From an uncultured Chloroflexia bacterium (GTDB lineage: Bacteria > Chloroflexota > Dehalococcoidia > GIF9 > UBA5629): 64,000 nt of DNA. The stretch spans positions 1,456 to 65,455 of the forward strand of contig CAVVVB010000010.1 of the NCBI GenBank assembly GCA_963751585.1, given 5' to 3'. Shown piece by piece: positions 31,251 through 51,060 of this stretch (within the stretch, counting starts at the first letter, position 1; every line of letters starts with the position of its first letter). A program made the translations under genes and the position numbers. The notes under the pieces are model-generated. The model ran no database searches and was not told the origin of the DNA. It saw nothing but the letters and a program-made list of their open reading frames with translations.

Positions 31251-31276
31251 ATTCCGATAGGCGGAATATTATTCCA
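31251..31276. promoter_or_regulatory. Putative operator ATTCCG-N5-CGGAAT-N3-ATTCCA about 120 bp upstream of the TH gene
   Basis: Same three-half-site arrangement as upstream of three substrate-binding-protein genes (23655-23680, 27854-27879, 33473-33498). Confidence 0.5.
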
Positions 31277-31326
31277 GTCCTTCTTGGGGCCAAGAAGGCC
31301 CTCATCAGATTTGAGACTAGGGCGTT

Positions 31327-33232
31327 TTATAAACTCGAGTCGTCTAAACCAAGGGCAGCCAATGTCTCAGAGCGGGGCAATCCGGTCTCTTCATCCCATC
31401 CCCGGAGGCGGTAATACTCCTTCAACATGCTCTTGAATTTATCCCGGTCGAGCATATTACCAATATAGGAGACCGCCTCGTCATTAGGACCAGGCACGGT
31501 GGTCACGTTAGACTCGTGCGTGGCCCGCAAGGGTTCGGTGAAGTTGATCTCAAGGGGGTAGTCAGCTTCGGGGACTACCCGTCCCTCCCGCAGTAGGATA
31601 AGTCTTTGCAGGTTGTAAATACGTTCGGCATACCGGTCAAGCACTTCGCCGGCAATGCCGGTAACCGCGGTAAAGAGCTTGGCGCCGAGGTCGGGGTCCC
31701 CCACATGGTCCGGCGTATTGAAGGAAAAGGTAATGGGGTAGCCGAAATCACACAGACCTAGGCTTTCTTTGAGATAGGTCCTGTTCAGTATTTTTTTCGC
31801 CGCCAGCGCCTTCCCCTCATAGCTGGTAAAATCTCCGGCCGCCTCACCGCCCCAGAAAGCCCTGGCAATATCATGTACCACCTTAGTTGTCACCGGCGTG
31901 CTGCCGGGACGGAGTTGATTCAGTACCCAGGCAGCATAGACAAAGACAATCTCGTGCAGGTAGTTATGATGCACCCTGGGTTCCATAGGGTAGAGCAGCG
32001 CATTGACGAAGAATGCCCGGGGCGGGTTGAAGTCATTCGCCATGATTGGTGCCAGATAACGGGGGAACAGGGCCCGGGCTTTAGCCGATACCCTGTCGCC
32101 AATCCTCACCAGTCCCTCGGCCAGGATATCACCAAACCCCTCACGATAGGCTATCGCATGAATCAGCTCTTTCAGGAATTCTCCGGTGCCGATCTTAGCT
32201 AGCGGCAGGCCAGTCTCCTTTTCGGCAAGAACTCCCGACCGATAGCACTTGTGAAGCCAGTCAATAATGGCCATGAGCTCCCATGTATCTACGGAGTAAT
32301 CGTCAGCCAAGACTGGCGCATCGAAGAATGTCTCTATCGGCTCATCCTCCCGGCCGAAATTCCATGGCCGGTAATAGTCCAAGGACTGGCACTTGCGGAG
32401 GCCTTCCAGCCGCTGGTCATATCGATATACCCCCCTGACGCACTCCATCCCGCAAAGATAGCAGCCACCCTTGCTGATACGCTCCACGGTATGGCCAGGG
32501 GCATAGCCAGGCAATATTCTGAAGTTAGGCAACGACGGATTGGTACCCTTGCTTATCCGGATGGTATTGCGGTTAAGCTCCTTGAGAGCGTCCGGGGTCG
32601 GCTACGGAGATTTTCCCGGTACCCATGATGGCGATGGCTTTTAGATTTTTGGAACCCATGACCGCCCCGAAGCCGGCCGTAAGAGTGCAACCGTGGGAGG
32701 CCAGGGCTATAGCTGTCCTGACCCTTCTTTCGCCGGCCACGCCGGTGGTGATAAAACGCGTCTTTTCACCATGGGTCTGCTGGAGCACCTCTCCCGTCCG
32801 GTAAGCGTTCTGTCCCCACAGCGATGAGGCATCCCGGAGTTCGGCCTCGCCATCGTGAATCCACAGATATACGGGTTTGGGTGCACGTCCCCCAACAATA
32901 ATACCGTCAAACCCTGCCTTCTTCAGCTCCGCGCCGACAAATCCGGCGAAACTACCGTAACAGTAGCCCTCAGGGAGGGCCATCGGGGACTTGCCGACCA
33001 CCGATAACTGTGTCGCCGCTTGGGCTCCAGTTCCCACCAGCGGCCCGGCCATGAAGATAAGCCGGTTCTCCGGGTCAAAAGCCTTGGTCTCCGGTTTTAC
33101 CGTCTCCCAGTAGAGTTTCGTGCCGATGCCACGTCCGCCAAGGAACTTCTCGGCGTATGGTTGTGTTGCGATTTGGGTTATGGCGGCACTACTCAGATTT
33201 ACATGCAGTATCTTACCTACCCAGCCATACAT
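31327..33232 (-). CDS. Aldehyde:ferredoxin oxidoreductase (tungsten AOR family), one apparent frameshift near 32532-32573
   Basis: The N-terminal domain MYGWVGKILHVNLS...FLGGRGIGTKLYWE (ORF 33232->32573) and the catalytic and Fe-S part with CYLCGMEC (ORF 32532->31327) are collinear with the intact paralog at 42828-44702. Confidence 0.8.
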
Positions 33233-33472
33233 ACTTATACCTTCCCTTATTTGACAATATTTATTTTACCAAACCAGTTCTTGGTAAATAGCGGTAATCT
33301 GCCCTTCGGATAAAGCCAAACTTGACCGTCACTGCCGGAGGCTATTACCATCCGCTATGGTGATAATATTATATCTTACATTTTGTCGGCGATGCAATAA
33401 AATGAATGTGTTTTATCTATTGACAAATAAATATCTATATGATAGAATTTCACCTAAACAAATCAAGCATAG

Positions 33473-33498
33473 TGGAATGCCATTTCGCTAACCGGAAT
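33473..33498. promoter_or_regulatory. Putative operator TGGAAT-N3-ATTTC-N6-CGGAAT 128 bp upstream of the substrate-binding-protein gene
   Basis: See finding on the shared motif. Confidence 0.5.
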
Positions 33499-33625
33499 AC
33501 GATGCTGCTAACTTTCTGATAAGTTGACCATTTTTCATCATAATATGTCTTATGGAAAGGAGAGTAAAATGTAAGTGCTCATAACGAAAAGGTCTGCCTT
33601 CCCCTAAAATATAAAGGAGGAGAAA

Positions 33626-34897
33626 ATGAGGCGTCTTTCAATAGCCATATTACTGGCAATAGTCTTGGTAATTTCACTTGTTGTTTCCTGTACTTCAGGG
33701 AAAACATCAACCCCTACCCCTGTCCCAACCCAAACTCAGACCCAAACCCAGACATCTGCTCCGGCAGCCGCTAAGACTTTGAAAATTGGTCTCATTACCA
33801 ACTTAGAATCGCCACTCGACCTCCCCTTTGCACAGGGGTCGCAAGCCATGGCGGATCTAATTAATAAGAACGGCGGCATGGTTATCGGTGGGGACACCTA
33901 TAACATCCAACTGATTGTGTATGACTCGAAGGGCGATGGGGCAACAGCAAAAACCGCCGCACAAAGACTTATTTCCGAAGACAATGTAAAGTTCATACTT
34001 GGTGATGAGACGGCGGATTCCTGGATTCCCCTTACCGAAGCCAGCAAGGTAATCAACATTAACTGCGACGTCACCAACAATATCTTTGACACAAAGAACC
34101 ATTACACCTTCCAGGGAAATGTCGCTAATACGGAAGCGGCGGAACTATGGGGATGGTTTACCCAGAATTATCCGAATCTGAAGACCATGGTCAGTGCCTA
34201 TCCGGATAACGAGATTGGTCACTCCTACGGCGGTCTCGTCAAGAAATCAGCGGCAGCCTTTGGCCTAAATCTGATTGATGAAGAATACTACCCGCCAACG
34301 ACTACCGACTTCAGCAGCCTGGGTGCCAAGGTAAAGAACCTGAACCCGGACTGCTTCCTCGCTCAATACGGGGGTCCGATATCGGATAGTAACGCCTTCA
34401 AAGCTGCCTACGAGGCCGGCTGGAAGGGGCAACAGTTTGCTTCCTCGACGCTACCGACAGATGTTCTAGTGTCCATCGTTCCACCGGAGGCAGTAGAAGG
34501 CATGGTTTGTCTGGCTTGGGCCGATGAAATAGAGCCGCTTGCCGGGGCCGCCAAGGTATTCGTGGATGCCTATACCGCCAAATCCGGGAAATGGGATTGG
34601 CCCGAACTTGTACAATTGAACTCCTGGTACGTTCTTATGGGGGCATTAACACAGGCTAACAGCCTCGATACGGACAAAGTGGCGTCCGTGCTTGCCAGCG
34701 GCATGAAGTACGAGAGCCCCTGTTTTGTTGGCCAAGGCGAGATGGTCAGCCGGCCGGACCTGGGGAATTCACGCACTGTTGATAATATGGGCGGTCTGGC
34801 CATCAAGAAAATAGTGGGTGGTAAGACCCAGATAGTTCATGTCATCAGCCTGGATGAAGCGTACTCCTATAACCAGAAATTCTGGGGCTGGAAATAA
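33626..34897 (+). CDS. Liv-type ABC substrate-binding lipoprotein
   Basis: Lipobox LVVSCTSG, a (TQ)n/Pro linker, KTLKIGLITN, LivK-like fold. Confidence 0.85.
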   Translation: MRRLSIAILLAIVLVISLVVSCTSGKTSTPTPVPTQTQTQTQTSAPAAAKTLKIGLITNLESPLDLPFAQGSQAMADLINKNGGMVIGGDTYNIQLIVYDSKGDGATAKTAAQRLISEDNVKFILGDETADSWIPLTEASKVININCDVTNNIFDTKNHYTFQGNVANTEAAELWGWFTQNYPNLKTMVSAYPDNEIGHSYGGLVKKSAAAFGLNLIDEEYYPPTTTDFSSLGAKVKNLNPDCFLAQYGGPISDSNAFKAAYEAGWKGQQFASSTLPTDVLVSIVPPEAVEGMVCLAWADEIEPLAGAAKVFVDAYTAKSGKWDWPELVQLNSWYVLMGALTQANSLDTDKVASVLASGMKYESPCFVGQGEMVSRPDLGNSRTVDNMGGLAIKKIVGGKTQIVHVISLDEAYSYNQKFWGWK

Positions 34898-35003
34898 AGG
34901 ATAATGTAACCACGTCTGTTTACTGGCAGTAGCGGTCCGTTCTTTATCGGGAAGACACCGCTACTGCCGGTAATTCCACAGCAGAAAAGGCATAGTAACG
35001 TCG

Positions 35004-35879
35004 ATGAGTTTATTTGGCCAGTTAGCCTTTAACGGCTTGGTTATGGGTTTAATTTACGTCATTTTAGCCGCTGGTCTCGTCCTAATCATGAACGTTTCCA
35101 GGATATTCCTTATTGCCTACGGCCAGTTCTATATGATAGGCGGCTATATTGTCTGGGCCGGAGTGACTTTATGGCATCTCCCGTTCTTTATTGCTCTAGT
35201 GATAGCCGTACTAGCTACCGCCATATTGGGACTGCTGAGCTACCGTTTAATCTTCCAGTACGTCCAGTTTGCGAAGAATCAATTTCTGGTAGTTATCGCA
35301 GCTGCCATAGGCCTCATGATGCTTCTCGCCCAGGCTGGATTGATAGTTTTTGGTTCGACGGCACGGGGAGTCCCACCTATAGTCCCGGGCATAACCAGCT
35401 TCGCCGGTATTAGTTTCCCCAATGCCAAACTGGTACTTATCGTGCTAGCCCTTGCCATCACCTTGGCTCTGTTCTGGGTCTATGAGAAGACAAATCTCGG
35501 GCGTGTCATGCGTGCTGTTGCCTTTCTACCGGATGCCGCTTCTCTGCAGGGAATCAATACCCAAAAAATATATTTTATAACCCTGGGAATCGGCAGCGCT
35601 CTTGCCGGCGTCGCCGGGGCGATTATGGCACCAAGCTATTCTCTTAGCCCTGATATGGGCACCAATATCTTTTTGCCGGTGATGTTACTCATGATGTTAG
35701 GAGGGATGGATAGCCTGCTCGGGACAATCCCCAGCGGGCTAGTAGTGGGCTTGACTTTAAGCTTCGGCCAATATTTTATGCATTCTAGCGCGCAGATAAT
35801 TCTTTATTCCGTTATCGGCATCATCATCTTCTTCCGGCCCAACGGGTTGCTCGGGCGCGGCATGAAACTGGGGATATAA
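35004..35879 (+). CDS. HAAT-family ABC permease (LivH-like)
   Basis: About 8 TM helices and LivH-like conserved blocks. Confidence 0.85.
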   Translation: MSLFGQLAFNGLVMGLIYVILAAGLVLIMNVSRIFLIAYGQFYMIGGYIVWAGVTLWHLPFFIALVIAVLATAILGLLSYRLIFQYVQFAKNQFLVVIAAAIGLMMLLAQAGLIVFGSTARGVPPIVPGITSFAGISFPNAKLVLIVLALAITLALFWVYEKTNLGRVMRAVAFLPDAASLQGINTQKIYFITLGIGSALAGVAGAIMAPSYSLSPDMGTNIFLPVMLLMMLGGMDSLLGTIPSGLVVGLTLSFGQYFMHSSAQIILYSVIGIIIFFRPNGLLGRGMKLGI

Positions 35880-36932
35880 GTGACGAAACAGATACTGAAA
35901 ACACTTACAGCGCGCTATAAGCTAATTTTATGGCTCGTTTTAGCTATCATCCTGGTCTTGGCGCCTCTGGTGGTGACCTCTCCATATTATCTCGATATAC
36001 TGATTAAGACAGGCATTAATATTGCCCTGGCGATGACTTTTATCCTCGTGCTGAGAACAGGGCTAATCAATATGAGTATAGCCGCTTTCTGGGGGGCGGG
36101 AGCTTATGCCTCCACCATGCTGGTAATGAGAGCAAACCTGTCCTTCTGGCTTAGTCTGCCCGCGTCTGCCTTGATAGTTGGGGTCATTGCTTTATGCCTC
36201 GGCTTTCTTTTGGTTAGAACTGCCGGCTTTGGTTTTGTCATACTTACCGCGGTAATAGGTATGCTGACACCCGTCATTATTGGCAGTATTGGGGCAGTGG
36301 GCGGCTTCCAAGGTATCGTCGGCATCCCCCCTCCCAACCCTATTCACATTCCCTTCTTAGCCCCGGTAGAATTCGTCTCCAATAGGTCCTTTTACTACCT
36401 CATGCTGTTTTTATTACTATTGGTGATATTATTGTTTTCCGGTCTCTATAAGGCCTGGTCAGGCAGGGCTTGGATGGCCATTGGCCTGAACCCCAATCTG
36501 GCACAATCACTTGGTATCAATATCTTTAAATACAGATTGGCGGTATTTGTGGTGGGCTCCGCGGTCGCTGGGCTAATGGGTAGTTTTTATGCCCACTACG
36601 TGCAGAGCATCACACCTCAAACATTTGACGTTTTTAAGACAATTTATGTACATGTCTACGCTATTTTGGGTGGCCTTGATTTCGCCATTTTGGGACCGGT
36701 ATTAGGCTCGTTTGTGATGACATTCGCCCCTGAGTTGCTGCGCCATACCAGACAGTTTGAGCCACTAATTACCGGCCTAATATTAATACTGATAATATTA
36801 TTCCTGCCTGGAGGAATCTTGAGTCTATCGCGTATACGGCCCGCTTCGAAGCATCTCTCTCAAAGTCTCACCAGTATCGGCAAGGTGATTAAATCCTCGC
36901 TGTCATCCAAGCGAGCTACAAGGAAAGGGTAA
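35880..36932 (+). CDS. HAAT-family ABC permease (LivM-like)
   Basis: LivM-like hydrophobic profile. Start overlaps the upstream stop. Confidence 0.85.
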   Translation: MTKQILKTLTARYKLILWLVLAIILVLAPLVVTSPYYLDILIKTGINIALAMTFILVLRTGLINMSIAAFWGAGAYASTMLVMRANLSFWLSLPASALIVGVIALCLGFLLVRTAGFGFVILTAVIGMLTPVIIGSIGAVGGFQGIVGIPPPNPIHIPFLAPVEFVSNRSFYYLMLFLLLLVILLFSGLYKAWSGRAWMAIGLNPNLAQSLGINIFKYRLAVFVVGSAVAGLMGSFYAHYVQSITPQTFDVFKTIYVHVYAILGGLDFAILGPVLGSFVMTFAPELLRHTRQFEPLITGLILILIILFLPGGILSLSRIRPASKHLSQSLTSIGKVIKSSLSSKRATRKG

Positions 36933-37684
36933 TGCTTAAGGTCGAAAATTTAACCAAAGTTTTCGGTGGGCTTGTTGCCGTTGATGGGGTAAGCCTCGAA
37001 GTCACTGATTCAGAGATATTAGGATTGATAGGTCCGAACGGAGCCGGTAAGAGTACTCTTATCAACCTCATCAGCGCTTTCTACCCTGTTACTAGCGGCA
37101 AAGTGCTCTTTGGAGGACGGGATATAACCCGGCTGAAAGCACACCAGGTAGCCGCGCTAGGCATAGGCCGCACTTTTCAAGCATCAACTCTATTTATGGA
37201 GCTGATCGTTCTTGACAATGTGTTTACCGGGTACCATATGAGCTACCGAACCAATATATTTGGAAGGGTGCTACGCATACCTTCAGCGCTAAGGGAAGAG
37301 GAGACATTGAAACAAAGGACGGTGGAGATACTGGAGTTTATGGGTCTGGGCTCCCTAAGAAACGAACTCGCCAAGAACCTGCCGCACGGTAATCAAAGGA
37401 TTCTCGGTGTCTGCATGGCTTTAGCCATCAATCCTAAATTGCTTCTATTGGACGAACCGTTAACCGGTATGAACCCGATAGAAATACAAACCATGGTAAA
37501 TCTAATCAGACAGATACGTCATAGAGGCATTACCATCGTCCTCATCGAACACAACGTTTCGGCGATTATGGACTTATGTGATAGGATAATAGTATTAAAT
37601 TATGGGAAGAAGCTTGCTGAGGGCTCTCCAAAAGAAATACAGGAAAACGAAGAGGTAATCGATGCCTATCTGGGGAAGGCGTAG
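36932..37684 (+). CDS. HAAT-family ABC ATPase (LivG-like)
   Basis: Walker A GPNGAGKST, LivG-type insertion, LLLDEP. Confidence 0.9.
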   Translation: MLKVENLTKVFGGLVAVDGVSLEVTDSEILGLIGPNGAGKSTLINLISAFYPVTSGKVLFGGRDITRLKAHQVAALGIGRTFQASTLFMELIVLDNVFTGYHMSYRTNIFGRVLRIPSALREEETLKQRTVEILEFMGLGSLRNELAKNLPHGNQRILGVCMALAINPKLLLLDEPLTGMNPIEIQTMVNLIRQIRHRGITIVLIEHNVSAIMDLCDRIIVLNYGKKLAEGSPKEIQENEEVIDAYLGKA

Positions 37685-37693
37685 GAAACACAG

Positions 37694-38407
37694 ATGCTGC
37701 TTGAAATAAAAGATTTGACAGTACACTACGGAGTGGCTGAAGCTTTAAGAGGCATCTCCTTAACGGTTGATGAGGGCTCGGTGGCGACAATTGTCGGAGC
37801 CAACGGGGCTGGCAAGACGACTATCCTGAAAACCATCACCGGTCTGAAAAAGGCGACATCCGGCGAAATATGGTTTCAGGGTAAAAAAATAAACGGTCTA
37901 TCAGTACCCGATGTTGTTAAGCTAGGAATCGCTTATGTACCAGAAGACAAAATGCTTTTCGCCCCCCTAACCGTCTTGGACAACCTGAAACTGGGCGCTT
38001 ATCTCCGTAAAGATAAAGATGGAATAGCTAAAGACCTTGATTCTGTCTACCAGCACTTCCCAATCCTGAAAGAGAAGCGCGGGCAGCTGGCTGGGAATCT
38101 AAGTGGGGGGCAGCAGCAAATGCTGGCCATTGCCAGGGCCTTGATGGCTAGCCCCAAATTACTCTTAATGGACGAGCCGAGCACAGGATTATCACCAATA
38201 TTAGTTGCCGAAGTAGGTAATATCATTAGAGATATTAACCAAGGCGGTATCACGATCATACTAGTTGAGCAAAATGCCCGGATGGCTTTTAAGCTGGCTA
38301 AAAGGGCCTATATCTTACAAGTTGGTAAGATTGTCCTAGAAGGTGATGTCGAGGAATTAGTTAACAATGAGCTTGTGCGGAAGGCTTATCTGGGCGGGAA
38401 AAAATGA
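37694..38407 (+). CDS. HAAT-family ABC ATPase (LivF-like)
   Basis: GANGAGKTT, LSGGQQQMLAIARAL, LLLMDEPS. Confidence 0.9.
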   Translation: MLLEIKDLTVHYGVAEALRGISLTVDEGSVATIVGANGAGKTTILKTITGLKKATSGEIWFQGKKINGLSVPDVVKLGIAYVPEDKMLFAPLTVLDNLKLGAYLRKDKDGIAKDLDSVYQHFPILKEKRGQLAGNLSGGQQQMLAIARALMASPKLLLMDEPSTGLSPILVAEVGNIIRDINQGGITIILVEQNARMAFKLAKRAYILQVGKIVLEGDVEELVNNELVRKAYLGGKK

Positions 38408-38475
38408 ACAGCAAAACAGTCACTTTTTCCTCGATATCCGGAATTTAATAGCAGGGTATAAGGAGTAGTGAACAA

Positions 38476-39231
38476 ATGGAAACGATAGATAGGACATTTA
38501 ATATTCTGGAATTATTCCTTGGCCACCAGGGACCGCTTAGTATTACCGAATTATCCAAATTAAGTGGTTTGAGCCCCGCGGTGACCCATAGGATTGTGAC
38601 CGCCCTACTAAAGAAAGGCTATCTTGTTCAGAAGGAGAAAAGAGGGAAATACTCGCTGGGTTTAAAATTTTTAGACTTCAACTATTTCATCCAGGGGAAT
38701 ATGAAAATCAAAGATATTGCCCACCCACACTTGCTAAAGCTTAGCAAAGAAGCCGATGAAGCTGTTACTATGGGGATTCTTGATGGTAAGGAATTACTGG
38801 TCATCGAGCGGATTGATACTAACCACGACCTGCGCATCGGTGGGGCCATTGGTAAAAGGGCCCCTCTCCACAGCGCCGCTGTTGGCAAGGTATTACTGGC
38901 GCAAATGTCGGCGGCGGAAAGGAATGCAATCATTAATGACAAATCGATTACGGAAAAGTTCACGAAGACTACGATCACGGGAATACGCAGAATGGACAAG
39001 GAGTTAGAATTATTTAGAGCGGAAGGCTGCGCCTATGACCGGGAGGAGATGGCGGTGGGTATCTGGTCCGTGGCGGCGCCGGTTTATGGCGTTACGGGTA
39101 AAATTGAGGCTGGGGTAGCTATTTTAGCTCCCACCGCAAGAGTTACCGAGGAGAAAGCCTTGAGGTGGGCTTCGCTGACTAAGGCATGCGCCGCCAAGAT
39201 ATCCCGCGAGCTGGGCTACAGGGGGAACTAG
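38476..39231 (+). CDS. IclR family transcriptional regulator
   Basis: N-terminal HTH LSITELSKLSGLSPAVTHRIVTALLKKGYL and a C-terminal IclR effector domain. Confidence 0.85.
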   Translation: METIDRTFNILELFLGHQGPLSITELSKLSGLSPAVTHRIVTALLKKGYLVQKEKRGKYSLGLKFLDFNYFIQGNMKIKDIAHPHLLKLSKEADEAVTMGILDGKELLVIERIDTNHDLRIGGAIGKRAPLHSAAVGKVLLAQMSAAERNAIINDKSITEKFTKTTITGIRRMDKELELFRAEGCAYDREEMAVGIWSVAAPVYGVTGKIEAGVAILAPTARVTEEKALRWASLTKACAAKISRELGYRGN

Positions 39232-39309
39232 GGGATTCATTGATTTTAATATCATTTCGAACCAGAGGGATGAAAAATAATAGCATGGAAAACAAAAGGA
39301 GGTCGGTCA

Positions 39310-39995: not shown

Positions 39996-40050
39996 GCTGA
40001 TCTCCATGAAGTTAAATAGCGATGCCGCAGATTCGAATCTGAAAAGGACA

Positions 40051-42030: not shown

Positions 42031-42073
42031 ACAAAAGACATTTTAAGGGAGGCGCTCTAAAATAGATAACAGA

Positions 42074-42820: not shown

Positions 42821-42827
42821 CACGGCC

Positions 42828-44702
42828 ATGTACGGCATGACAGGGAAAATGCTAAGAGTGAACCTGAGCGATTCCAGAATTTCGACATTCTCCACGGAAT
42901 CCTACACCAGGCATTATCTCGGTGGACGCGGTATCGCCTCCAGACTTTACTGGGAAGAAGTCCCGCCCGAGGTGAAGCCGTTTGACCCGGAGAATAAACT
43001 GATTTTCGTCAACGGCCCTCTGGTCGGTACCGGCGCCCAGGCCGCCACGGTCATGGCGGCAGCCGGCAAATCACCCAGCACTTTCCCGGAAAGCTACTGT
43101 TACGGTTTTTTTGCCGGCTATATCGGCACCGAGCTCAAGAAGGCCGGCTACGACGGCATCATCGTCGAAGGATGTGCCTCCGAACCGGCGTACCTCTGGA
43201 TCAACGATGGGCAGGCCGAGATCCGCAAAGCCGCCGCCTTGTGGGGGAAAAGCGCCTACCGTACCGGCGCGGCTCTGGAGAACGAACATGGTAAAGACGT
43301 AAAATGGATTACGATAGGCGTGTCCGGGGAACAAAAAGTACGGACCGCCATCGCCGTGGCTTCCTATGAATCAACACTGTCCTGTGGCTTCGGGGCGGTG
43401 ATGGGGTCGAAAAACCTCAAGGCTATCGCGGTAAAAGGCAGTGGGGACATCTCCGTCGCCAGCCGGGAAAAACTTGCCGACCTGACCCGTTACTCATACA
43501 AAATCAGTAAGCGCGTGCATATGGCCATCCCCAAACAGATTACCATGACAGGGCACGGGCATTTACTCGAGGTGGTCGGGAAAGGCAATTGTTTCAAATG
43601 CGGCAGTGTCTGCATCAGGAATGTCTACCGCTATGGTAAACGACAGGACTTAACAGCCATGCGCCGCTGTCAGTCGATGGAATACTACCTACCCTGGTTC
43701 TACGGAAAAGATGATGAGCCCATCGAAACGCTCTTCGATGCCCCGACACTGGCCAACGATTACTCAATAGATACCTTTGAACTCGAAAATATCCTCCGCT
43801 GGCTTTACGCCTGCCATCAGGCAGGATGTTTGAGCGAAAGGGAGACCGGTTTACCGCTCTCCGCCATCGGCACCCGGGGCTTTCTGGAGAAGCTGCTCCA
43901 CGCGATCGCCCACCGCGAGGGCTTCGGCGATATCCTGGCCGAGGGGCAGTTAAGAGCGGGGTTTAAATTCTCTGACCCGGTCAGAGAACTCTTTAGTCAT
44001 AAGGTGAACGGCGTGGGGCAATACGAAACGACTCCCACCAGACAATTCGTGGTTCAATCTTTATTGATTCCCATGGAACCAAGGGCGCACCAACCCCTTC
44101 TTCATGCCACTTCTTTCGCTATGAGGGCCTGGGATTTGAACCTAAGTGACCCTGATTTATCTCCCATCGATACCAATGTTTTTCACAAAGTGGCGGAGGC
44201 CTTCTGGGGCAGCGAAGAAGCTGGGGATATCGCCAGCTATGAGGGTAAGCCTTTAGCCGCCGTTAAAATACAGGACAGAGTCTATTTGCATGATAGCTTG
44301 GGACTATGCAATTTTACGTGGCCGATAACTTACTCCTTCAGTACACCTAGCCATGTAGGAGACCCCTCTCTGGAGGGTAAGCTGTATTCAGCTGTTACCG
44401 GGCTCCCCGAAGATAGGCTTGAGGAATATAGCCAGAGAATCGTCGACCTTCAGAGGGCGATATTGATACGTGAAGGAAGAAAACTACCCGAAGCAGATTA
44501 TCCAAGAGAGTACCTGTTTACGGAACCACTGACACCCGACAGACCAGTAATGGTGCCGGGCCCCCATGGTCCGATAGATATATCGGGTAATAAACTCGAT
44601 AGAGAAAAACACCGACTCATGCTGCAGGAATTCTACCTAAGGCGGCGCTGGAACCCTAAAACAGGCATGCCGGAATATCCTATTCCCGTAACATTAAGTT
44701 AA
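42828..44702 (+). CDS. Aldehyde:ferredoxin oxidoreductase (tungsten AOR family), intact
   Basis: N-terminal domain MYGMTGKMLRVNLS...YLGGRGIASRLYWEE. CFKCGSVC Fe-S ligands. 624 aa full length. Confidence 0.9.
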   Translation: MYGMTGKMLRVNLSDSRISTFSTESYTRHYLGGRGIASRLYWEEVPPEVKPFDPENKLIFVNGPLVGTGAQAATVMAAAGKSPSTFPESYCYGFFAGYIGTELKKAGYDGIIVEGCASEPAYLWINDGQAEIRKAAALWGKSAYRTGAALENEHGKDVKWITIGVSGEQKVRTAIAVASYESTLSCGFGAVMGSKNLKAIAVKGSGDISVASREKLADLTRYSYKISKRVHMAIPKQITMTGHGHLLEVVGKGNCFKCGSVCIRNVYRYGKRQDLTAMRRCQSMEYYLPWFYGKDDEPIETLFDAPTLANDYSIDTFELENILRWLYACHQAGCLSERETGLPLSAIGTRGFLEKLLHAIAHREGFGDILAEGQLRAGFKFSDPVRELFSHKVNGVGQYETTPTRQFVVQSLLIPMEPRAHQPLLHATSFAMRAWDLNLSDPDLSPIDTNVFHKVAEAFWGSEEAGDIASYEGKPLAAVKIQDRVYLHDSLGLCNFTWPITYSFSTPSHVGDPSLEGKLYSAVTGLPEDRLEEYSQRIVDLQRAILIREGRKLPEADYPREYLFTEPLTPDRPVMVPGPHGPIDISGNKLDREKHRLMLQEFYLRRRWNPKTGMPEYPIPVTLS

Positions 44703-44778
44703 AATAGATTCAATATATGAACCCGTATCATAAAAATTTGACGCTAGCGTGACATCACTTCCTTGTTAGGAGGTAGTC

Positions 44779-45654
44779 TTGTTATTTGGGCAATTAATAT
44801 TTGACGGATTGGCGATGGGGCTAGTTTTTGTCATCCTGGCTGCCGGGCTGGTTATTATCACTAGCACCAGTAAAATACTCTTCATGGCCTACGGTGCTTT
44901 CTATACGATAGGTGCCTACGCTACCTGGTACTCAGTGCATTATTTAAGCCTTCCCTACTTTCCCTCGCTAATTATCGGGGTAGCCTGTTGCACCATCATC
45001 GCCATGCTGAGTTATATCTTGATTTTTCGGCGTCTCAAGGCAACCGAGGGTGGGGGATTTTTAGCCACTTTAATAGCTTCCATGGGATTATCCATGGTTC
45101 TCAACCAGGGGGGCCTGTTAATTTATGGCACCGTACCCCGGAGTATCCCGGCGGTGTTTAAAGGCGCGTTCCATCCATTTGGCCTTAGCATTACCAGCGA
45201 TAAACTGGCACTTGTCGTCATGGGTATTGTTATTACGCTATTCTTGTTCTGGGTATATGAGAAGACTACCATTGGCCGGTCCATGCGCTCTATTGCCTAT
45301 ATCACGGAAGCCGCCGCTTTGCAAGGAGTCAATACCACCCTGATAGACATGCTGTCTCTGGGAATAGGATGTGCCCTGGCTGGCTTTGCTGGAGGTATTT
45401 TAGCCCCCAGCTACGGCATTAGCCCCGATATGGGCAACAACGTGCTGTGGACGGTGATGTTGATGATCTATTTAGGCGGTATGGATAGCCTGCCGGGGGC
45501 GGTTTTGGCGGGGTTGGTAATTGGCCAGATCCTGAGCTTTGGCCAGTATTACATCGGTAGTACGATTCAAATCTATATGTTCCTCATCATTGGTATCATA
45601 CTATATTTCAGGAATAATGGCTTGATGGGCCACGAAATAGACATTGGGATTTAA
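44779..45654 (+). CDS. HAAT-family ABC permease (LivH-like), second copy
   Basis: About 45-50% identical by eye to 35004-35879. Confidence 0.85.
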   Translation: MLFGQLIFDGLAMGLVFVILAAGLVIITSTSKILFMAYGAFYTIGAYATWYSVHYLSLPYFPSLIIGVACCTIIAMLSYILIFRRLKATEGGGFLATLIASMGLSMVLNQGGLLIYGTVPRSIPAVFKGAFHPFGLSITSDKLALVVMGIVITLFLFWVYEKTTIGRSMRSIAYITEAAALQGVNTTLIDMLSLGIGCALAGFAGGILAPSYGISPDMGNNVLWTVMLMIYLGGMDSLPGAVLAGLVIGQILSFGQYYIGSTIQIYMFLIIGIILYFRNNGLMGHEIDIGI

Positions 45655-45656
45655 AA

Positions 45657-46682
45657 GTGTTGAAGAATTTAACTACCCGCCACAAGAGCCTCGCCGGACT
45701 GGTGATCGGACTCGTAATCTACGCCCTAATACCACTGTTCGTGAAATCACCCTATTACCTTGACCTGTTTATTGTCGTGATGGTCAATGCCGTGCTGGGG
45801 ATGATGTTCATCATGACGTTGAGGACGGGGTTAATCAACATGGGGGTGATTCCTTTCTGGGGTGTAGGGGCTTACACCTCTGCCATACTGGCAACGAAGT
45901 TACACATGAATGTTTGGCTCTCTATGCCTATAGCTGCCCTATTTACAGGCGTCCTGGCTCTTGTTCTCGGCATTTTCCTCATTGGGAGCGGGAGCAAAGG
46001 GTTAAGCTTTGTGATACTTACCGCCGTGATAGGTATGCTATTCAATGTATTAGTCGGTAATATCTCCTATTTAGGCGCCTGGAACGGCATACCAAACATT
46101 CCTCAACCGAATCCTATTCATCTTCCCTTCTTGCCACCGATAGAATTTGTTTCCAAGATGCAGTTTTTTTATTTAGGGCTATTCATTTTTCTGATTATCA
46201 TACTGATAAGCAATGCCTTTTATTCAACTTCGGTAGGTAGAGCCTGGAGAGCCATCGGCATAAGCCCCCGATTAGCCGAATCGATAGGCGTAAATTTATT
46301 TAGGTACAAAATGCTGGCATTTGTCTTGTCTTCCGCGCTCTGTGGGCTAATCGGCAGTTTTTACGCCCACTATGAGACGTACGTTATTCCCGGTTCGTTC
46401 GGCATGTGGCAGAACATTTATGTGCAAATCTACGCCATTCTGGGTGGGATAGGCTATGCCACACTGGGGCCTTTTGTTGGCGCGGCGGTGATGACGTTTT
46501 TCCCCGAGTTTATACGCATGTACCGGGAAGTGGCACCTATAATTACCGGCATTCTGCTAATTTTAATGATACTGTTCTTACCTGAAGGGCTATTAGGTTT
46601 AGGCAAATACCGGAGTTATATTTCCAAGGTGATTAAAACGATTAGCTCTTTACTACCTAGACGCAAGGCGGGGCCAGTATGA
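45657..46682 (+). CDS. HAAT-family ABC permease (LivM-like), second copy
   Basis: Collinear with 35880-36932. Confidence 0.85.
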   Translation: MLKNLTTRHKSLAGLVIGLVIYALIPLFVKSPYYLDLFIVVMVNAVLGMMFIMTLRTGLINMGVIPFWGVGAYTSAILATKLHMNVWLSMPIAALFTGVLALVLGIFLIGSGSKGLSFVILTAVIGMLFNVLVGNISYLGAWNGIPNIPQPNPIHLPFLPPIEFVSKMQFFYLGLFIFLIIILISNAFYSTSVGRAWRAIGISPRLAESIGVNLFRYKMLAFVLSSALCGLIGSFYAHYETYVIPGSFGMWQNIYVQIYAILGGIGYATLGPFVGAAVMTFFPEFIRMYREVAPIITGILLILMILFLPEGLLGLGKYRSYISKVIKTISSLLPRRKAGPV

Positions 46683-47434
46683 TACTTCAAGTTAAAGAAG
46701 TAACGAAACAGTTTGGCGGACTGGTAGCCGTGGACAGGGTAAGTTTTGATATCGCCGAATCCGAGATATTGGGGATAATAGGTCCAAACGGGGCTGGTAA
46801 GACGACCATGATCAACGTGATTTGTGGTTTCTACCCGGCTACCGGTGGCAGCATCATCTTCAACGGCCAGGATATCACCGGATTGAAAGCTCACCAGATA
46901 GCACGGCTGGGTATCGGCCGTAATTTTCAGACATCCACCCTATTTATGCCCCTGCCGGTTATTGAAAACGTTTTTACCGGATTCCACTTGACCTACAAAA
47001 CAAGTATCTGGAAAAGACTATTACGCCTACCATCAGCGCTTAAGGAAGAGGAAGCCTTAAAACAGAGGGGAGCGGAAATACTGGATAAGATGGGACTGGG
47101 CCCCTTCAAATATGAATTGACCAAGAACCTGCCGTACGGGCATCAGAGGATACTCGGTGTCTGTGTTGCCCTGGCCACCGATCCCAAGCTTTTAATATTG
47201 GATGAACCGGTGACCGGCATGAACCAAAACGAGATACAGACTATGCTGCAATTAATCAGAGAGATACGGGATAGTGGCGTCACGATCGCCATGATTGAAC
47301 ATAACATGGTAGCCGTCATGAGTATGTGTGACCGGATAATCGTGCTCGACCATGGGCAAAAGATTGCTGAAGGACTGCCCAAAGAGATACGGGAGAACCA
47401 AAGGGTCATCGAAGCCTACCTGGGGAAGGAATAG
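46679..47434 (+). CDS. HAAT-family ABC ATPase (LivG-like), second copy
   Basis: GPNGAGKTT and signature motifs. Start overlaps the upstream stop. Confidence 0.9.
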
Positions 47435-47443
47435 AAATTAGCC

Positions 47444-48154
47444 ATGCTCCTAGAAGTAAAAGACCTGAAAGTATATTACGGCAAGGCTAAAGCTGTAGAA
47501 GGTGTTTCCCTAAACGTTCAAGAGGGAGAAATAGTCACTATCGTTGGGGCTAATGGCGCCGGCAAGACAACCATCCTAAGAGCCATATCTGGGTTAAAGA
47601 AAGCAACCTCCGGCGAGATCTGGTTCCAAAATAAGAGGATAGACAATATGTCACCTTATAAAATTGTCAGGATGGGAATCATCCAGATCCCCGCCGGCAG
47701 AATGATTTTTGCCCCGATGACCGTTTTGGACAACCTGAAGATGGGTGCTTATCGACGTAAAGACAAGGCCAAGATAAAGCAAGACCTTGAATCTATTTAC
47801 GAGCATTTTCCCATCCTCAAGGAAAGGCGGTCACAGCTGGGAGGGCAGCTTAGCGGTGGTCAGCAACAAATGCTGGCTGTGGCTCGTGCCTTAATGGCTA
47901 GCCCCAAATTACTCTTAATGGATGAGCCAAGTATAGGGTTGTCCCCTATATTAGTCGCTGAGATCGGCAACATCATCAGAAACATCAATAAGAACGGCAT
48001 CAGCGTTCTTCTGGTGGAGCAAAACTGCCGCATGGCCCTGAAAATTGCTCAAAGAGCCTATATCCTGGAACTGGGCTCAATAGCTCTGGAAGGCGATGCT
48101 GCCAACCTCATTAATGATGAACGTGTGAAAAAGCTTTACTTAGGTGGTGGTTAG
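47444..48154 (+). CDS. HAAT-family ABC ATPase (LivF-like), second copy
   Basis: GANGAGKTT, LSGGQQQMLAVARAL. Confidence 0.9.
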   Translation: MLLEVKDLKVYYGKAKAVEGVSLNVQEGEIVTIVGANGAGKTTILRAISGLKKATSGEIWFQNKRIDNMSPYKIVRMGIIQIPAGRMIFAPMTVLDNLKMGAYRRKDKAKIKQDLESIYEHFPILKERRSQLGGQLSGGQQQMLAVARALMASPKLLLMDEPSIGLSPILVAEIGNIIRNINKNGISVLLVEQNCRMALKIAQRAYILELGSIALEGDAANLINDERVKKLYLGGG

Positions 48155-48279
48155 CATCAGTAAAAAGGATACGCCGGTAGAGTTCGACTTTCTTGTTTTT
48201 CTTCCTTTATTCGAATATAATCAGGCTACCCAAATTCAAGAAGTATTATCATTTATAAGGCAGATCAGGAGGAATCGCT

Positions 48280-50283
48280 ATGTCTCAAAAATATCCACAT
48301 CTTCTATCACCCATCAAAGTAGGTAATGTCGTTTTTAAAAACAGGCTGATTGCGTCGCCAAGCAAGCCCCACTTCATCCAGGGTCCCGAACCATATCCGG
48401 CCGATAGTGTCATTACCCACTTCGCCAACAAGGCAAAAAATGGAGCCACGGTGGTCACCTGCAGCATGAACGCGCCAAGCGTCGTTACTGACAAAGACCC
48501 TCGCCAGGTACCGGAGGCCCATAGTGATTTTAATCCGGAGCGTCTGTGGTTTGCGTGGAGTCACCACGCCCCCAGCTACAACATATTGAACAGCCGCTGT
48601 CAGAATTACTTCTCGCAATTGACCGAAGCCATTCATTTTTACGGCGCCAAGGCGTCAATGCAGATCTTCGCGGACGTGCCGCAACAATACGACGTCAGTA
48701 CCGGAATCCCCTCTAAAGCTGTGTATGGAGATGGGAGCATCTCCACTTTAGGAAAAGAAATACCCGCGGATTTGCTAGACGGAATCGCCGATGATTATGC
48801 GTTTCAAGCAACTCTTCTGAAAGAGATGGGGTTTGATATGGTATTCCTGCACATGGCCTACCAGTTATCGATCCTGGGTAGATTTCTGTCCCCACTTACC
48901 AACAAGAGAACCGACCAATATGGCAACAGTCTGGAAAATCGGGCTCGTTTCCCCATCATGGTCGCCGACCGCATTAAGCAGAAATGCGGTCGGGACTTCC
49001 TCATCGAGGCCAGCATGAGCGGCGGCGAGCCAGCCGGCGGCTTTACGCTGGAGGATGCCACTGTCTACGCCAAAATGTTCACCGGGCATATCGACCTGCT
49101 TCAGGTACGCTCGCCTACCATGGATCCGCAACACCCCACCGGCTTTATCCAGGAGAAAACGCCGCTTCTTTACATGGCAGAAGCCATCAAAAAGAGTGGT
49201 GCTGGCATCAAAGTTGTCACCATTGGCGGCTTTCAGGATCTGGACATTTGCGAGGATGTTATCGCCTCTGGAAAGGCGGACTTCATCGCCATGGCCAGGA
49301 GCTGGATAACCAACCCCGATTATGGTCGCAAGGCCTACGAGGGTAGAAACGAGGATGTGGTGCCGTGTCTGCGGTGCAACGCCTGCCACATGAGCAGCTA
49401 CTACGATACATGGGCAAGCACATGCGCCGTCAATCCTGTTTGGGGAATGGAACACAGGATTGAAAGAATGATTCAGCCTCCCACTGATAAAAAGAAGGTC
49501 GCGGTGGTCGGCGGCGGGCCGGCGGGCATGGAAGCGGCGCTGATAGCCGCGGGCAGAGGACACAAGGTCACCTTGTACGAAAAGAGCGGCGCCCTCGGTG
49601 GGCTTTTCAGGAAGTTTGAAAACGTCTCTTTCAAGTGGCCCCATAAAGACTTCAAAAACTACCTCATTCGCCAGGTCAGCAAGGCAAACATTGATGTCCG
49701 TCTCAATACGGAAGCCACTCCGGAGATGATTAAAAAAGGCAAATACGATGCCGTTCTCGTCGCCATTGGGGCGGAACCGGTTGTTCCGCAGATTCCCGGC
49801 ATAAATGGCAAGAACGTAGTGTTTGTCGTAGACGTTTTTGGGAAAGAGGATACCCTCGGGAAAGATGTCGTGGTGGTCGGTGGGGGAGAAGTCGGCGTGG
49901 AAATAGGCATGCATCTGGCAGAGAAGGGGCATAATGTCACTGTGCTGGAAATGACCAACATGCTGGCCCGGGACGCTGCGCCCATCCATTACTACGCCAT
50001 GTTCCGCGAGGCTTGGCAGAAGCTGAAGAACTTCAATGGTATTGTGAATGCCCGCTGCACCGGCATTATGGCTGATAAGGTAATTTATGTTGATGGGAAC
50101 GGCAAGGAGCAGTCAGTCAAAGCCGATAGCGTGGTCATTGCCGTAGGCATGAAGGCGAAGGACGACCTGGCGCTGAAGTTTTACGGTGCGGGCGACAGAT
50201 TATTTATGATCGGAGACTGCCGTGTCTCTGGTAATGTGCAAAAGGCCATGCGGAGCGCGTTCAGCACCGCGTCTACGCTCTGA
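48280..50283 (+). CDS. OYE-like flavin oxidoreductase fused to FAD/NAD(P)-binding domain with a Cys cluster, divergent paralog of 40051-42030
   Basis: The C-terminal two-thirds are collinear with the paralog (MVFLHMAYQLSILGRFLSPLTNKRTDQYGNSLENRA, CLRCNACHMSSYYDTWASTC, VVGGGPAGMEAAL). The N-terminal 120 aa are divergent. Confidence 0.8.
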   Translation: MSQKYPHLLSPIKVGNVVFKNRLIASPSKPHFIQGPEPYPADSVITHFANKAKNGATVVTCSMNAPSVVTDKDPRQVPEAHSDFNPERLWFAWSHHAPSYNILNSRCQNYFSQLTEAIHFYGAKASMQIFADVPQQYDVSTGIPSKAVYGDGSISTLGKEIPADLLDGIADDYAFQATLLKEMGFDMVFLHMAYQLSILGRFLSPLTNKRTDQYGNSLENRARFPIMVADRIKQKCGRDFLIEASMSGGEPAGGFTLEDATVYAKMFTGHIDLLQVRSPTMDPQHPTGFIQEKTPLLYMAEAIKKSGAGIKVVTIGGFQDLDICEDVIASGKADFIAMARSWITNPDYGRKAYEGRNEDVVPCLRCNACHMSSYYDTWASTCAVNPVWGMEHRIERMIQPPTDKKKVAVVGGGPAGMEAALIAAGRGHKVTLYEKSGALGGLFRKFENVSFKWPHKDFKNYLIRQVSKANIDVRLNTEATPEMIKKGKYDAVLVAIGAEPVVPQIPGINGKNVVFVVDVFGKEDTLGKDVVVVGGGEVGVEIGMHLAEKGHNVTVLEMTNMLARDAAPIHYYAMFREAWQKLKNFNGIVNARCTGIMADKVIYVDGNGKEQSVKADSVVIAVGMKAKDDLALKFYGAGDRLFMIGDCRVSGNVQKAMRSAFSTASTL

Positions 50284-50289
50284 CATCAG

Positions 50290-51060
50290 ATGATGAACGG
50301 AAAATTGAAAGATAAAGTCGCCATCGTGACTGGTGCTAGCTCGGGAATCGGTAGGGCCACGGCGTTGGCGTTCTCCAGAGAAGGAGCTAAGTTAGTCGTC
50401 GCTGACATAGATGTAGCAGGTGGTGAAGAAACCGTGAAAATGATCCAAGGGAACGGCGGGAAGGCACTCTTTGTGAAAACCGATGTGACGAAAGCAGCCG
50501 AGGTTGAGGAGATGGTCAATGAGACGATTAAGGCCTACGGTCGACTTGATTGTGCTCATAATAACGCCGGGGTAAACGTTGAGACAGCCCCAACAGCTGC
50601 ATGCACCGAAGACAACTGGGATCGTGTTATGGATATTAACCTAAAGGGAATATGGTTATGCCTGAAATACGAAACTCCTGTTATGCAAAAGCATGGTGGC
50701 GGTGCTATCGTTAATACGGCATCGATTCTTGGGCTTGTCGCCACCGAAAATCGTCCTGCTTATGTTGCCAGCAAGCATGGCATAATCGGTTTGACTAAAG
50801 CCGCCGCGTTAGAATATGCAAAAGTCGGTATTCGTGTTAATGCCATATGTCCTGGTCCCACTAAAACAGGGTCTTCCACCGAGACTTTCTTATTTACTAA
50901 AGACCTGGATTTTGAAAGGAAGAAGATAGCGGAAATTCCGATGGGACGGTTTGGTGACCCATCGGAAATCGCTGAAGCAGTGGTATGGCTTTGCTCGGAT
51001 GCTGCTTCTTTTGTCACAGGACTGGCTATGCCCGTTGACGGAGCTCTTACGGCGCGTTGA
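50290..51060 (+). CDS. SDR family oxidoreductase
   Basis: KVAIVTGASSGIGRATA, NNAG, YVASKHG. Confidence 0.85.
   Translation: MMNGKLKDKVAIVTGASSGIGRATALAFSREGAKLVVADIDVAGGEETVKMIQGNGGKALFVKTDVTKAAEVEEMVNETIKAYGRLDCAHNNAGVNVETAPTAACTEDNWDRVMDINLKGIWLCLKYETPVMQKHGGGAIVNTASILGLVATENRPAYVASKHGIIGLTKAAALEYAKVGIRVNAICPGPTKTGSSTETFLFTKDLDFERKKIAEIPMGRFGDPSEIAEAVVWLCSDAASFVTGLAMPVDGALTAR

Follow-up and report, generated by a model that had tools for sequence, protein, structure and literature searches.

HAAT-family ABC importers occur beside catabolic genes, and the bile-acid 7-alpha-dehydroxylation (bai) operon brings together an SDR, two OYE/Fe-S/FAD enzymes, a SnoaL_4/NTF2 dehydratase, and a transporter; OYE/Fe-S/FAD enzymes, SDRs, and NTF2 enzymes are combined in bai-type as well as in flavonoid and isoflavonoid pathways. 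Anoxic sediments harbour abundant non-dehalogenating Dehalococcoidia, whose carbon sources are for the most part a matter of guesswork based on annotations like “AOR” and “pyrogallol hydroxytransferase”. Several copies of AOR and of AthL, the large subunit of pyrogallol-phloroglucinol transhydroxylase, have been reported from sediment Chloroflexi (PMC3971608, PMC4959651). Here we describe a locus in a 64,000-nucleotide stretch (the window) of contig CAVVVB010000010.1 (assembly GCA_963751585.1, an uncultured Chloroflexia bacterium placed in the Dehalococcoidia and, judged by the names of its nearest homologs, probably in the Dehalococcoidales), in which HAAT-type importers (LivHMGF and substrate-binding proteins, SBPs) are clustered with AOR, OYE/Fe-S/FAD (OYE), SDR, SnoaL_4, and AthL-like genes and with a gene for an IclR-family regulator (Table 1). 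An initial annotation had read positions 31327–51060 as a catabolic module repeated in tandem; the relevant locus reaches further left, to ~18.7 kb, and on balance we consider it probable that the whole region (~18.7–51.1 kb) represents one regulon built from anciently diverged paralogous cassettes and rearranged by an inversion. Families were assigned by Pfam and NCBIfam profile searches and solved relatives by PDB comparison, and gene pairs were compared with blastp, tblastn, and MAFFT; L- and P-numbers denote relatives’ loci and proteins from other metagenomes (L004 is a Logan contig).

The upstream regions of SBP0 and SBP1 share two blocks, a promoter-like block (TATTGACAAATAAAYATCYWTATGATA) and, ~20 nt downstream, a second block (GTGGAATGCNATTYCGCTAANNGGAATA); each of these blocks has two matches in the window, with 0 expected by chance. 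The core of the second block is a composite motif, GGAAT-N3-ATTYC-N7-GGAAT, which is found four times in 64 kb (0.04 expected), i.e., upstream of SBP1, SBP0, the AthL-like gene, and a broken SBP gene. All four copies are intergenic and match the orientation of their own gene, and no further composite site was found in the window even at three mismatches. A −10-like box was identified only at SBP0 and SBP1, where the candidate operator is located just downstream of that box. While a promoter/terminator scan of the region gave counts that were not above shuffled expectation, the SBP1 promoter match is supported by the paralogous SBP0 copy. In L005, which carries an ortholog of IclR with 80% identity, three near-matches to the motif were found (0.14 expected), of which one precedes iclR by 20 nt and another falls within the promoter region of dctP; an exact match was present in none of the relatives’ loci (0/87), and the motif was not found in L004, whose contig begins inside the SBP gene, without the promoter. 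The IclR protein probably acts as a repressor at these sites and would control all units of the locus, which likely represent a single IclR regulon with GGAAT-N3-ATTYC-N7-GGAAT as its candidate operator.

The extent of the first unit is indicated by L004, in which the order SBP-LivH-LivM-LivG-LivF-OYE-AOR is found with 73–83% identity to SBP1-LivHMGF1-OYE1-AOR2 of the window (73–78% for SBP1). AOR2 thus closes the first unit rather than opening a second one, and the reading of a module repeated in tandem is only partly supported. A repeat search of the window further identified a 125-nt inverted repeat with 95% identity between its arms. This repeat takes in the AGGAGG ribosome-binding site and TTG start of livH2 together with its first ~31 codons and has sharp homology borders; the left copy (livH′) runs into a stop and is located 322 nt downstream of SBP0, with 8 nt between it and the end of SDR0. 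While SBP1 adjoins Liv set 1, Liv set 2 has no adjacent SBP in the window; the LivHMGF2 operons of L052 and L055 do have one. Re-inverting 26168–44750 gives SBP0-livH2M2G2F2-OYE2-SDR2, preceded on the same strand by AOR1 and AthL, and in this layout unit A runs the opposite way from the 393-bp AOR1/SBP1 spacer.

We infer an ancestral layout in which two operons would have diverged from this 393-bp spacer, unit A comprising SBP1-LivHMGF1-IclR-SnoaL-OYE1-SDR1-AOR2 and unit B comprising AOR1-AthL followed by SBP0-LivHMGF2-OYE2-SDR2. An 18.6-kb inversion (~26168–44750) with a duplicated 125-nt breakpoint would have moved LivHMGF2-OYE2-SDR2 behind AOR2, yielding today’s 17-gene co-directional array and leaving SBP0, the presumed original partner of LivHMGF2, stranded with a livH′ stub. 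The head-to-tail order, previously taken as original, is best explained by such an inversion of divergent operons, and the 5% divergence of the relic suggests that the event was not very recent. A link within unit B is also seen in L005, which carries orthologs of SnoaL (89%), IclR (80%), AthL, and OYE2 and a TRAP transporter, and in which an intact 871-aa AthL-like gene (83–85%) is adjacent to, and divergent from, the OYE2 ortholog (79%). Since the inversion, LivHMGF2-OYE2-SDR2 would be without an operator-bearing promoter and would depend on readthrough from that of SBP1, because the spacers between the plus-strand genes of 33626–51060 measure 6–125 nt and contain no convincing terminator; all of these genes (17/17) are full length against their orthologs.

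Identities between the paralogs range from 35 to 69%, depending on the pair. The figure of about 45–55% that had been estimated by eye holds for AOR1 (frameshift corrected) and AOR2 (55% over the full length; 63% for the N domain and 53% for the C domain by blastp), for LivH (50%), and for LivM (50%), but not for LivG (66%), LivF (69%), the OYE pair (35–36%), or the SDR pair (36%); SBP0 and SBP1 share 52% identity. In one MAFFT alignment, OYE1 and OYE2 (35.9%) were as distant as OYE1 and 2-naphthoyl-CoA reductase (NCR; 33.3%) or as NCR and FadH (35.3%), such that no specific paralogy of OYE1 and OYE2 is apparent, and nothing suggests that the OYE and SDR genes were duplicated along with the transporters. 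At the DNA level, the two halves share only short patches of 65–83% similarity (mostly 65–75%), which excludes an assembly artefact and agrees with the old paralogy that had been proposed.

Closer relatives of the individual copies were found in other genomes. AOR2 is 77–80% identical to P0002 and P0003 and >70% identical to ~20 other proteins, some of them labelled Dehalococcoidia, while the corrected AOR1 is 68–71% identical to P0036, P0040, and L006, a different sub-clade that includes proteins from metagenome-assembled genomes (MAGs) labelled “Deltaproteobacteria”. LivHMGF1 presents 74–83% identity to L004 as compared to 50–69% to LivHMGF2, and LivHMGF2 presents 66–81% identity to L049–L055, loci that are only 47–68% identical to LivHMGF1. 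OYE1 has relatives at 60–75% in MAGs of Dehalococcoidales, Anaerolineales, Desulfobacteraceae, and Thermodesulfobacteriota; OYE2 has >100 relatives at 58–82%, the named ones being mostly Chloroflexota, with one labelled Deltaproteobacteria. Because every copy is less similar to its partner in the window than to orthologs from other genomes, the two gene sets are, as judged from sequence identity, distinct old orthogroups and not products of a local duplication. A recent tandem segmental duplication was rejected, as every pair has closer orthologs elsewhere and the inverted-repeat relic indicates that the order is derived. An older event, in which one AOR, LivHMGF, OYE, and SDR module would have been duplicated in place as a block and the tandem order would be original, could account for the colinear SBP-LivHMGF-OYE-SDR core of both inferred units, for the 50–69% identity of the AOR, SBP, and Liv pairs, and for the SBP promoter/operator blocks, which could come from a common ancestor. 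We nevertheless regard such a block duplication as unlikely: the 35–36% identity of the OYE and SDR pairs is as between functionally different family members, AOR2 goes with unit A, the livH′ relic after SBP0 indicates a derived order, other genomes, some of them from another phylum, contain orthologs closer to the paralogs than these are to each other, and IclR-SnoaL, AthL-OYE2, and SDR1-AOR move as separate small blocks (L005, L006). In L006, an SDR1 ortholog (79%) immediately precedes an AOR (68%) that falls in the AOR1 sub-clade, and the gene families thus appear to have been shuffled as small blocks across genomes.

The ORF map (open reading frames, ORFs) contains all of the ORFs that the initial annotation had listed, on the strands and in the order given, and the gene families named there were all upheld by Pfam and NCBIfam. 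Most gene starts also stand, except that the start of the NTF2-like (SnoaL_4) gene is 39309, as 39310 falls out of frame, and that OYE1 starts at 40060 instead of 40051, with an ATG preceded by an AGGA-type ribosome-binding site; the homologs of the SnoaL_4 protein measure 224–228 aa. Each Liv set contains two BPD_transp_2 permeases and two ABC_tran ATPases, with BCA_ABC_TP_C on LivG, all above Pfam cutoffs, and the translation of SBP1 shows an N-terminal ...VVSC lipobox-like sequence.

Table 1. Features of the locus, with window coordinates, strand, and supporting evidence.
Feature	Position	Strand	Evidence or remark
Second AthL-like gene, pseudogene	18719–21248	−	At least 4 frameshifts; Molybdopterin and Molydop_binding fragments (Pfam)
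Broken HAAT-type SBP gene	22264–23638	−	44–53% to SBP1
Operator-like motif GGAATGTCATTCCACTCAATGGAAT upstream of broken SBP	23655–23679	−	−35-like TATTGACAAAC upstream of motif
IS-like element	23741–24986	+	27-nt terminal inverted repeats around 406-aa ORF 23791–25011
SDR0 (third SDR)	25181–26035	+	adh_short_C2, E 1e-52; 35–37% to SDR1 and SDR2
livH′ relic, truncated (first repeat arm)	26043–26167	−	Ribosome-binding site, TTG start, ~31 codons; LivH1 tblastn match 26044–26136
SBP0, intact HAAT-type binding protein	26490–27785	−	Peripla_BP_6, E 1e-40; 52% to SBP1
Operator-like motif upstream of SBP0	27854–27878	−	
SBP0 promoter-like element TATTGACAAATAAACATCCTTATGATA	27905–27931	−	
AthL-like molybdopterin enzyme gene, frameshifted	28522–31135	−	PDB 4v4c, E 4e-111
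Operator-like motif GGAATAATATTCCGCCTATCGGAAT upstream of AthL	31251–31275	−	
AOR1, frameshifted	31327–33232	−	AFOR_N + AFOR_C
SBP1 promoter-like element	33418–33444	+	TTGACA-17-TAGAAT, 11/12 matches; best sigma-70-like match of region
Operator-like motif upstream of SBP1	33474–33498	+	
SBP1, lipoprotein-type HAAT binding protein	33626–34897	+	Peripla_BP_6, E 2e-39
LivH1	35004–35879	+	Pfam; LivHMGF1 orthologs in L004, 74–83%
LivM1	35880–36932	+	As LivH1
LivG1	36932–37684	+	As LivH1
LivF1	37694–38407	+	As LivH1
IclR-family regulator	38476–39231	+	HTH_IclR + IclR_C; 80% ortholog in L005
SnoaL_4/NTF2-like enzyme	39309–39995	+	Pfam SnoaL_4; distantly LdpA-like
OYE1	40060–42030	+	Oxidored_FMN + Pyr_redox_2; clade motif LHGGHG-H-LL
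SDR1	42074–42820	+	adh_short; 79% ortholog in L006
AOR2, intact	42828–44702	+	AFOR_N + AFOR_C; no small subunit nearby
Second repeat arm	44751–44875	+	Ribosome-binding site and start of livH2
LivH2	44779–45654	+	Pfam; LivHMGF2 orthologs in L049–L055, 66–81%
LivM2	45657–46682	+	As LivH2
LivG2	46679–47434	+	As LivH2
LivF2	47444–48154	+	As LivH2
OYE2	48280–50283	+	Oxidored_FMN + Pyr_redox_2; large Chloroflexota-rich clade, motif LHMAYxL[ST]ILGRF
SDR2	50290–51060	+	adh_short_C2; NF004818, 346.6 bits vs cutoff 336 (generic “SDR family oxidoreductase” model)

AOR1, previously given as one ORF, consists of two ORFs in different frames (32573–33232, N domain; 31327–32532, C domain), and the frame breaks at ~32586, where a CCCC run contains an additional C (junction GCC GAC CCC GGA...); removing one C of this run restores an uninterrupted 634-aa AOR1. 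The adjacent AthL-like gene, likewise present as two ORFs in different frames, contains one extra nucleotide near 29225–29235, as compared to its intact L005 ortholog. Further left, a tblastn search with the L005 AthL recovered the second AthL-like copy as five consecutive pieces in different frames (44–65% identity), with the DNA repeats D1, D3, and D6 in register between the two AthL copies, and the broken SBP gene matches Peripla_BP_6 positions 16–193 and 206–324 in two overlapping ORFs; these genes would represent a third unit (SBP-AthL, 18.7–23.6 kb) that has decayed. Uniform sequencing error would not readily explain the uneven spread of decay, at least as regards the AthL copy that is broken several times, while the single frameshifts in AOR1 and AthL may reflect either sequencing error or early pseudogenisation.

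The neighbourhood is rich in mobile elements. The insertion sequence (IS)-like element, whose ORF shows a weak match to IS481 transposases (E 4.8e-11, below the curated cutoff) and no Pfam match at 1e-5, is located ~1 kb from the left inversion breakpoint. Upstream of the locus are an IS110-family transposase (12527–13912, minus strand) and an rve-type integrase/transposase (14400–15359, plus strand), and a tyrosine recombinase of the phage-integrase family (60839–61954, plus strand) is found near the right end of the window. Other genes outside the locus include two overlapping plus-strand ORFs without a Pfam family (52593–53261 and 53137–53940), which may represent another frameshifted gene, two adjacent DegV-family (fatty-acid-binding) paralogs (54123–54914 and 55337–56179, minus strand), and a 242-aa ORF (5105–5833, minus strand) with partial Glyco_transf_4 and Glycos_transf_1 matches, which may be a truncated glycosyltransferase.

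Both OYEs contain an FMN barrel, a CxxCxxC-x11/12-C cluster motif, and two GxGxxG motifs and align over their full length to PDB 6qkg with a three-domain FMN/[4Fe-4S]/FAD architecture, which confirms them as Fe-S flavoenzymes and places them in the three-cofactor type. Their closest solved relatives are NCR (6qkg), the best PDB match (E 6e-93 and 7e-71), and the E. coli 2,4-dienoyl-CoA reductase FadH (1ps9), the second best for both, with which the GxGxxG of the third domain is shared; identity to NCR and FadH is only 25–33%. Other three-cofactor relatives are the clostridial 2-enoate reductases, BaiCD/BaiH, and bilirubin reductase. Among NCBIfam equivalog models, BaiCD is the top model for OYE1 (448 bits, cutoff 825), followed by mycofactocin OYE (435, cutoff 793) and bilirubin reductase (430, cutoff 750), all short of their cutoffs, and OYE2 reaches 315–319 bits with the same models, also below cutoffs. 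While NCR is without GxGxxG in domain 3 and has its NADPH site blocked by W459, OYE1 and OYE2 have the GxGxxG and carry Met or His at that position; the NCR-specific residues W459, E341, and Y320 are replaced by M or H, A, and G, and the Phe cluster is absent. Because the GxGxxG is present and the NADPH site is unblocked, electrons are likely to flow from NAD(P)H through FAD and [4Fe-4S] to FMN, as in FadH and the enoate reductases.

The active sites of the two OYEs differ from those of both solved relatives. The proton-donor Tyr (NCR Y197, FadH Y166) is replaced by His in the OYE1 clade, the OYE2 clade has Ser/Thr there plus an insertion of one residue, and the His partner of this Tyr (FadH H252, NCR H284) is replaced by Ile in OYE1 and Met in OYE2, a pattern that is kept across orthologs. 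Classical OYEs bind a carbonyl or phenolate through an HxxH pair; this pair is kept in OYE1 (LHGGHG-H-LL), whereas FadH and NCR have other residues there. As the HxxH pair is kept and the scanned ORFs of the window include no CoA ligase or transferase, a non-CoA substrate is hinted at, and a free substrate is favoured for OYE1. OYE1 and OYE2 represent uncharacterised subfamilies, and no characterisation of the enzyme clades of this locus was found in the literature.

The AOR proteins match AFOR_N and AFOR_C with 203 and 145 bits (AOR2) and 203 and 168 bits (AOR1 halves), while the equivalog model for aldehyde ferredoxin oxidoreductase (NF007354) is not reached (262 bits, curated cutoff 868). 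The [4Fe-4S] ligands C255, C258, C262, and C494 (CxxCxxxC...C) are invariant in 26/26 members of the AOR clade, and AOR1 carries CYLCGMEC and ...GLCDF. In PfAOR numbering the catalytic residues are Glu313 and His448 (PMC13328260, PMC12727526); E285 aligns with PfAOR E313 and CaAFOR E312, whereas the PfAOR His448 region is not aligned in this clade, in which the invariant H426 is a candidate only. By gene context, with no WorS-type small subunit nearby, the AORs fit class I WOR (large subunit only; PMC13328260), a family in which only 5/92 clades have a known physiological role (PMC13328260). In comparison with solved AORs, only residues 1–225 align well and the C-terminal domains of AOR1 and AOR2 are strongly diverged; the clade is uncharacterised, and binding of a tungsten- or molybdenum-pterin is predicted by family. 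A Cys-ligated tungsten as in BamB, the class II benzoyl-CoA reductase, was considered, as the invariant C281 of the AOR clade aligns with BamB Cys322, and rejected because the catalytic Glu is retained and the same Cys-x3-Glu is found in the Clostridium autoethanogenum AFOR, whose tungsten has no protein ligand; no Bam-like partner genes (BamC-I) are present in the window. An obligate AOR-OYE complex is likewise not supported, as the two genes are adjacent only in L004 and the window and not in L001–L003. On a 1.39-Mb contig, L001 carries a tandem pair of the AOR2 clade (4437–8730) beside genes for XdhC, a MobA-like NTP_transf_3 protein, YqeC, and FdhD, which are molybdenum/tungsten cofactor maturation functions.

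The SBPs match no LivJ/K model of NCBIfam and match urea-SBP models only weakly (38–43 bits, cutoffs near 490), such that the liv names denote family only, as the initial annotation had cautioned. Among solved SBPs, urea binders gave the best matches, at E values no better than 1e-12 to 1e-15; 4ey3, 3tx6, and 4f06, which we take to be Rhodopseudomonas palustris aromatic-acid binding proteins of HAAT importers, are among the weak matches, and the comparison with solved structures is uninformative for the ligand. A housekeeping role, i.e., branched-chain amino acid import, FadH-type beta-oxidation reductases, and generic aldehyde detoxification, would be in line with the Pfam names BPD_transp_2 and BCA_ABC_TP_C, which derive from the branched-chain amino acid system, and with FadH as the second-best solved relative of both OYEs. 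This explanation appears very improbable in view of the absence of LivJ/K matches, the loss of the FadH Tyr166 and His252 equivalents at 25–32% identity to FadH, the absence of beta-oxidation or CoA-activating genes from the window, the candidate IclR control, and the linkage to AthL-like and LdpA-like genes.

A catabolic/uptake role, as proposed in the initial annotation, is plausible and is strengthened by the shared candidate operator, while the acid-to-aldehyde direction of the AORs and the aromatic-acid substrate suggested there are conjectural. In the proposed route, two complete HAAT-type importers would take up the substrate as a free compound, not as a CoA ester, two reductases or dehydrogenases with NAD(P)H-FAD-[4Fe-4S]-FMN electron flow and two SDRs would carry out C=C and alcohol/ketone redox steps, and one NTF2-type acid/base enzyme (dehydratase- or lyase-like) and one ferredoxin-linked AOR-type aldehyde/acid oxidoreductase would complete the set. 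A free aromatic or phenylpropanoid compound derived from plant polyphenols or lignin is the most likely substrate, given the AthL-like genes, the reports of AORs and AthL in Chloroflexi, and the parallel to bai and flavonoid pathways, with the LdpA-like NTF2 enzyme as a further hint; we put this substrate class forward tentatively, at slightly below even odds. Going beyond this, the IclR regulon might constitute an undescribed CoA-independent anaerobic route for a plant-polyphenol or lignin compound in sediment Dehalococcoidia. In such a route, two OYE clades with non-canonical active sites (Tyr to His; Tyr to Ser/Thr plus insertion) would take part, the LdpA-like NTF2 enzyme and two SDRs would contribute bai-like oxidation, dehydration, and reduction, the aldehyde/acid step would fall to the strongly diverged class I tungsten enzyme, and the net outcome would be reductive dehydroxylation or side-chain reduction; with all of these enzymes included, this scenario is speculative and rather unlikely to hold in full.

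Several observations weigh against a single regulon and pathway. The inversion rests on one repeat, and an un-inverted relative was not found; AthL and AOR1 are frameshifted, such that unit B may be partly non-functional, or the frameshifts may be sequencing errors; the canonical proton-donor Tyr is missing in both OYE clades, such that ene-reductase chemistry is not assured; and the SBPs are remote from all solved SBPs. Ortholog neighbourhoods are also variable: AOR2 orthologs in L001–L003 are without Liv and OYE genes, OYE2 orthologs are found in unrelated gene contexts, the OYE1-like gene of L012 is placed among PrpD/PrpF/aconitase genes, and LivHMGF2 orthologs adjoin GlcD/GlcF/GlcE-like genes, such that the present combination may not be one pathway. 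Nor did the gene context of distant OYE1 relatives (L012, L014–L048, L010) give a consistent pathway signal. Taken further, these neighbourhoods, together with the nearby IS-like elements and pseudogenes and with the several OYE and AOR paralogs per genome that are common in these lineages, would fit a mosaic in which unrelated AOR, OYE, SDR, and HAAT family members have gathered in a rearrangement-prone region and serve no single pathway. We consider such an accretion improbable, since the composite operator-like motif stands in four promoter regions at 0.04 expected, L005 has the same type of motif next to its IclR ortholog, L004 keeps the unit A core, and the 17 co-directional genes are all intact and closely spaced. 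The reading as one regulon of old cassettes rearranged by an inversion remains the one that we prefer.

Some of the relatives’ loci merit separate mention. In L050 (639–4969) and L052 (12296–16651), LivHMGF2 orthologs are flanked by a FAD_binding_4/CCG (Fe-S)/FAD_binding_4 trio of the glycolate-oxidase or D-lactate-dehydrogenase-like (GlcDEF) type, a hint that transporters of this orthogroup may take up a 2-hydroxy acid in other genomes. Several OYE/Fe-S/FAD paralogs stand side by side or a few kb apart in L022, L040, L042, L044, L087, and L005, and such Dehalococcoidia contigs point to a large lineage-specific expansion of the family. L037, from a human-gut Oscillospiraceae MAG, contains an AthL-like gene (2428–5127; 50–60% to the window AthL) ~5 kb from an OYE/Fe-S/FAD gene (9992–11959; 35% to OYE2), such that the AthL-OYE association may extend beyond Chloroflexota.

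The components of the locus belong to known families and uncharacterised subfamilies, and no current view is overturned by them. The locus offers a regulator with a candidate operator, two or three binding proteins, two large uncharacterised OYE clades, and one uncharacterised, putative tungsten-enzyme clade and represents a well-defined entry point to Dehalococcoidia carbon metabolism; it also serves as a caution that paralogous operons of old origin, once brought together by an inversion, can pass for a tandem duplication.

The sole significant solved relative of the SnoaL_4 protein is LdpA (PDB 8abt, E 5e-11), a diarylpropane/lignin-dimer lyase of sphingomonads (8abt–8abw; PMC9942872), with which it shares the N-terminal helix. 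Equivalents of the catalytic LdpA His97 and of the oxyanion-hole residues Tyr35 and Tyr147 are kept across 59 SnoaL_4 homologs, whereas Val/Thr stand in place of Asp40 and Val/Ser/Cys in place of Glu143, and the Glu143-Tyr161-Gln166 triad fails on Glu143; an assignment as LdpA was rejected on account of the replaced Asp40 of the His97-Asp40 dyad and of the LdpA-specific Glu143. The protein is more probably another dehydratase, isomerase, or lyase, with a substrate that is enolisable or phenolic. It gave no NCBIfam match at E ≤ 1e-5, and BaiE, named as an NTF2 dehydratase (PMC9942872), was not among its solved-structure matches at E ≤ 10. AthL is matched by the window copy with E 4e-111 (4v4c), yet both window copies are frameshifted, no small-subunit ORF follows them, and the stretch between AthL and SBP0 contains no ORF of at least 100 aa; the intact ortholog in L005 is linked to OYE2, IclR, and SnoaL orthologs.

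As compared to the bai operon, the locus lacks a detectable CoA ligase or transferase and its NTF2 protein is without the conserved Asp of the His-Asp dyad, while the same families recur, alongside importers, in the order SnoaL_4, OYE1, SDR1, OYE2, SDR2; the analogy is confined to this logic. As compared to HAAT importers that are found by catabolic genes, the same five components are present, here placed among oxidoreductase genes under a local regulator, with one transporter parted from its SBP by the proposed rearrangement.

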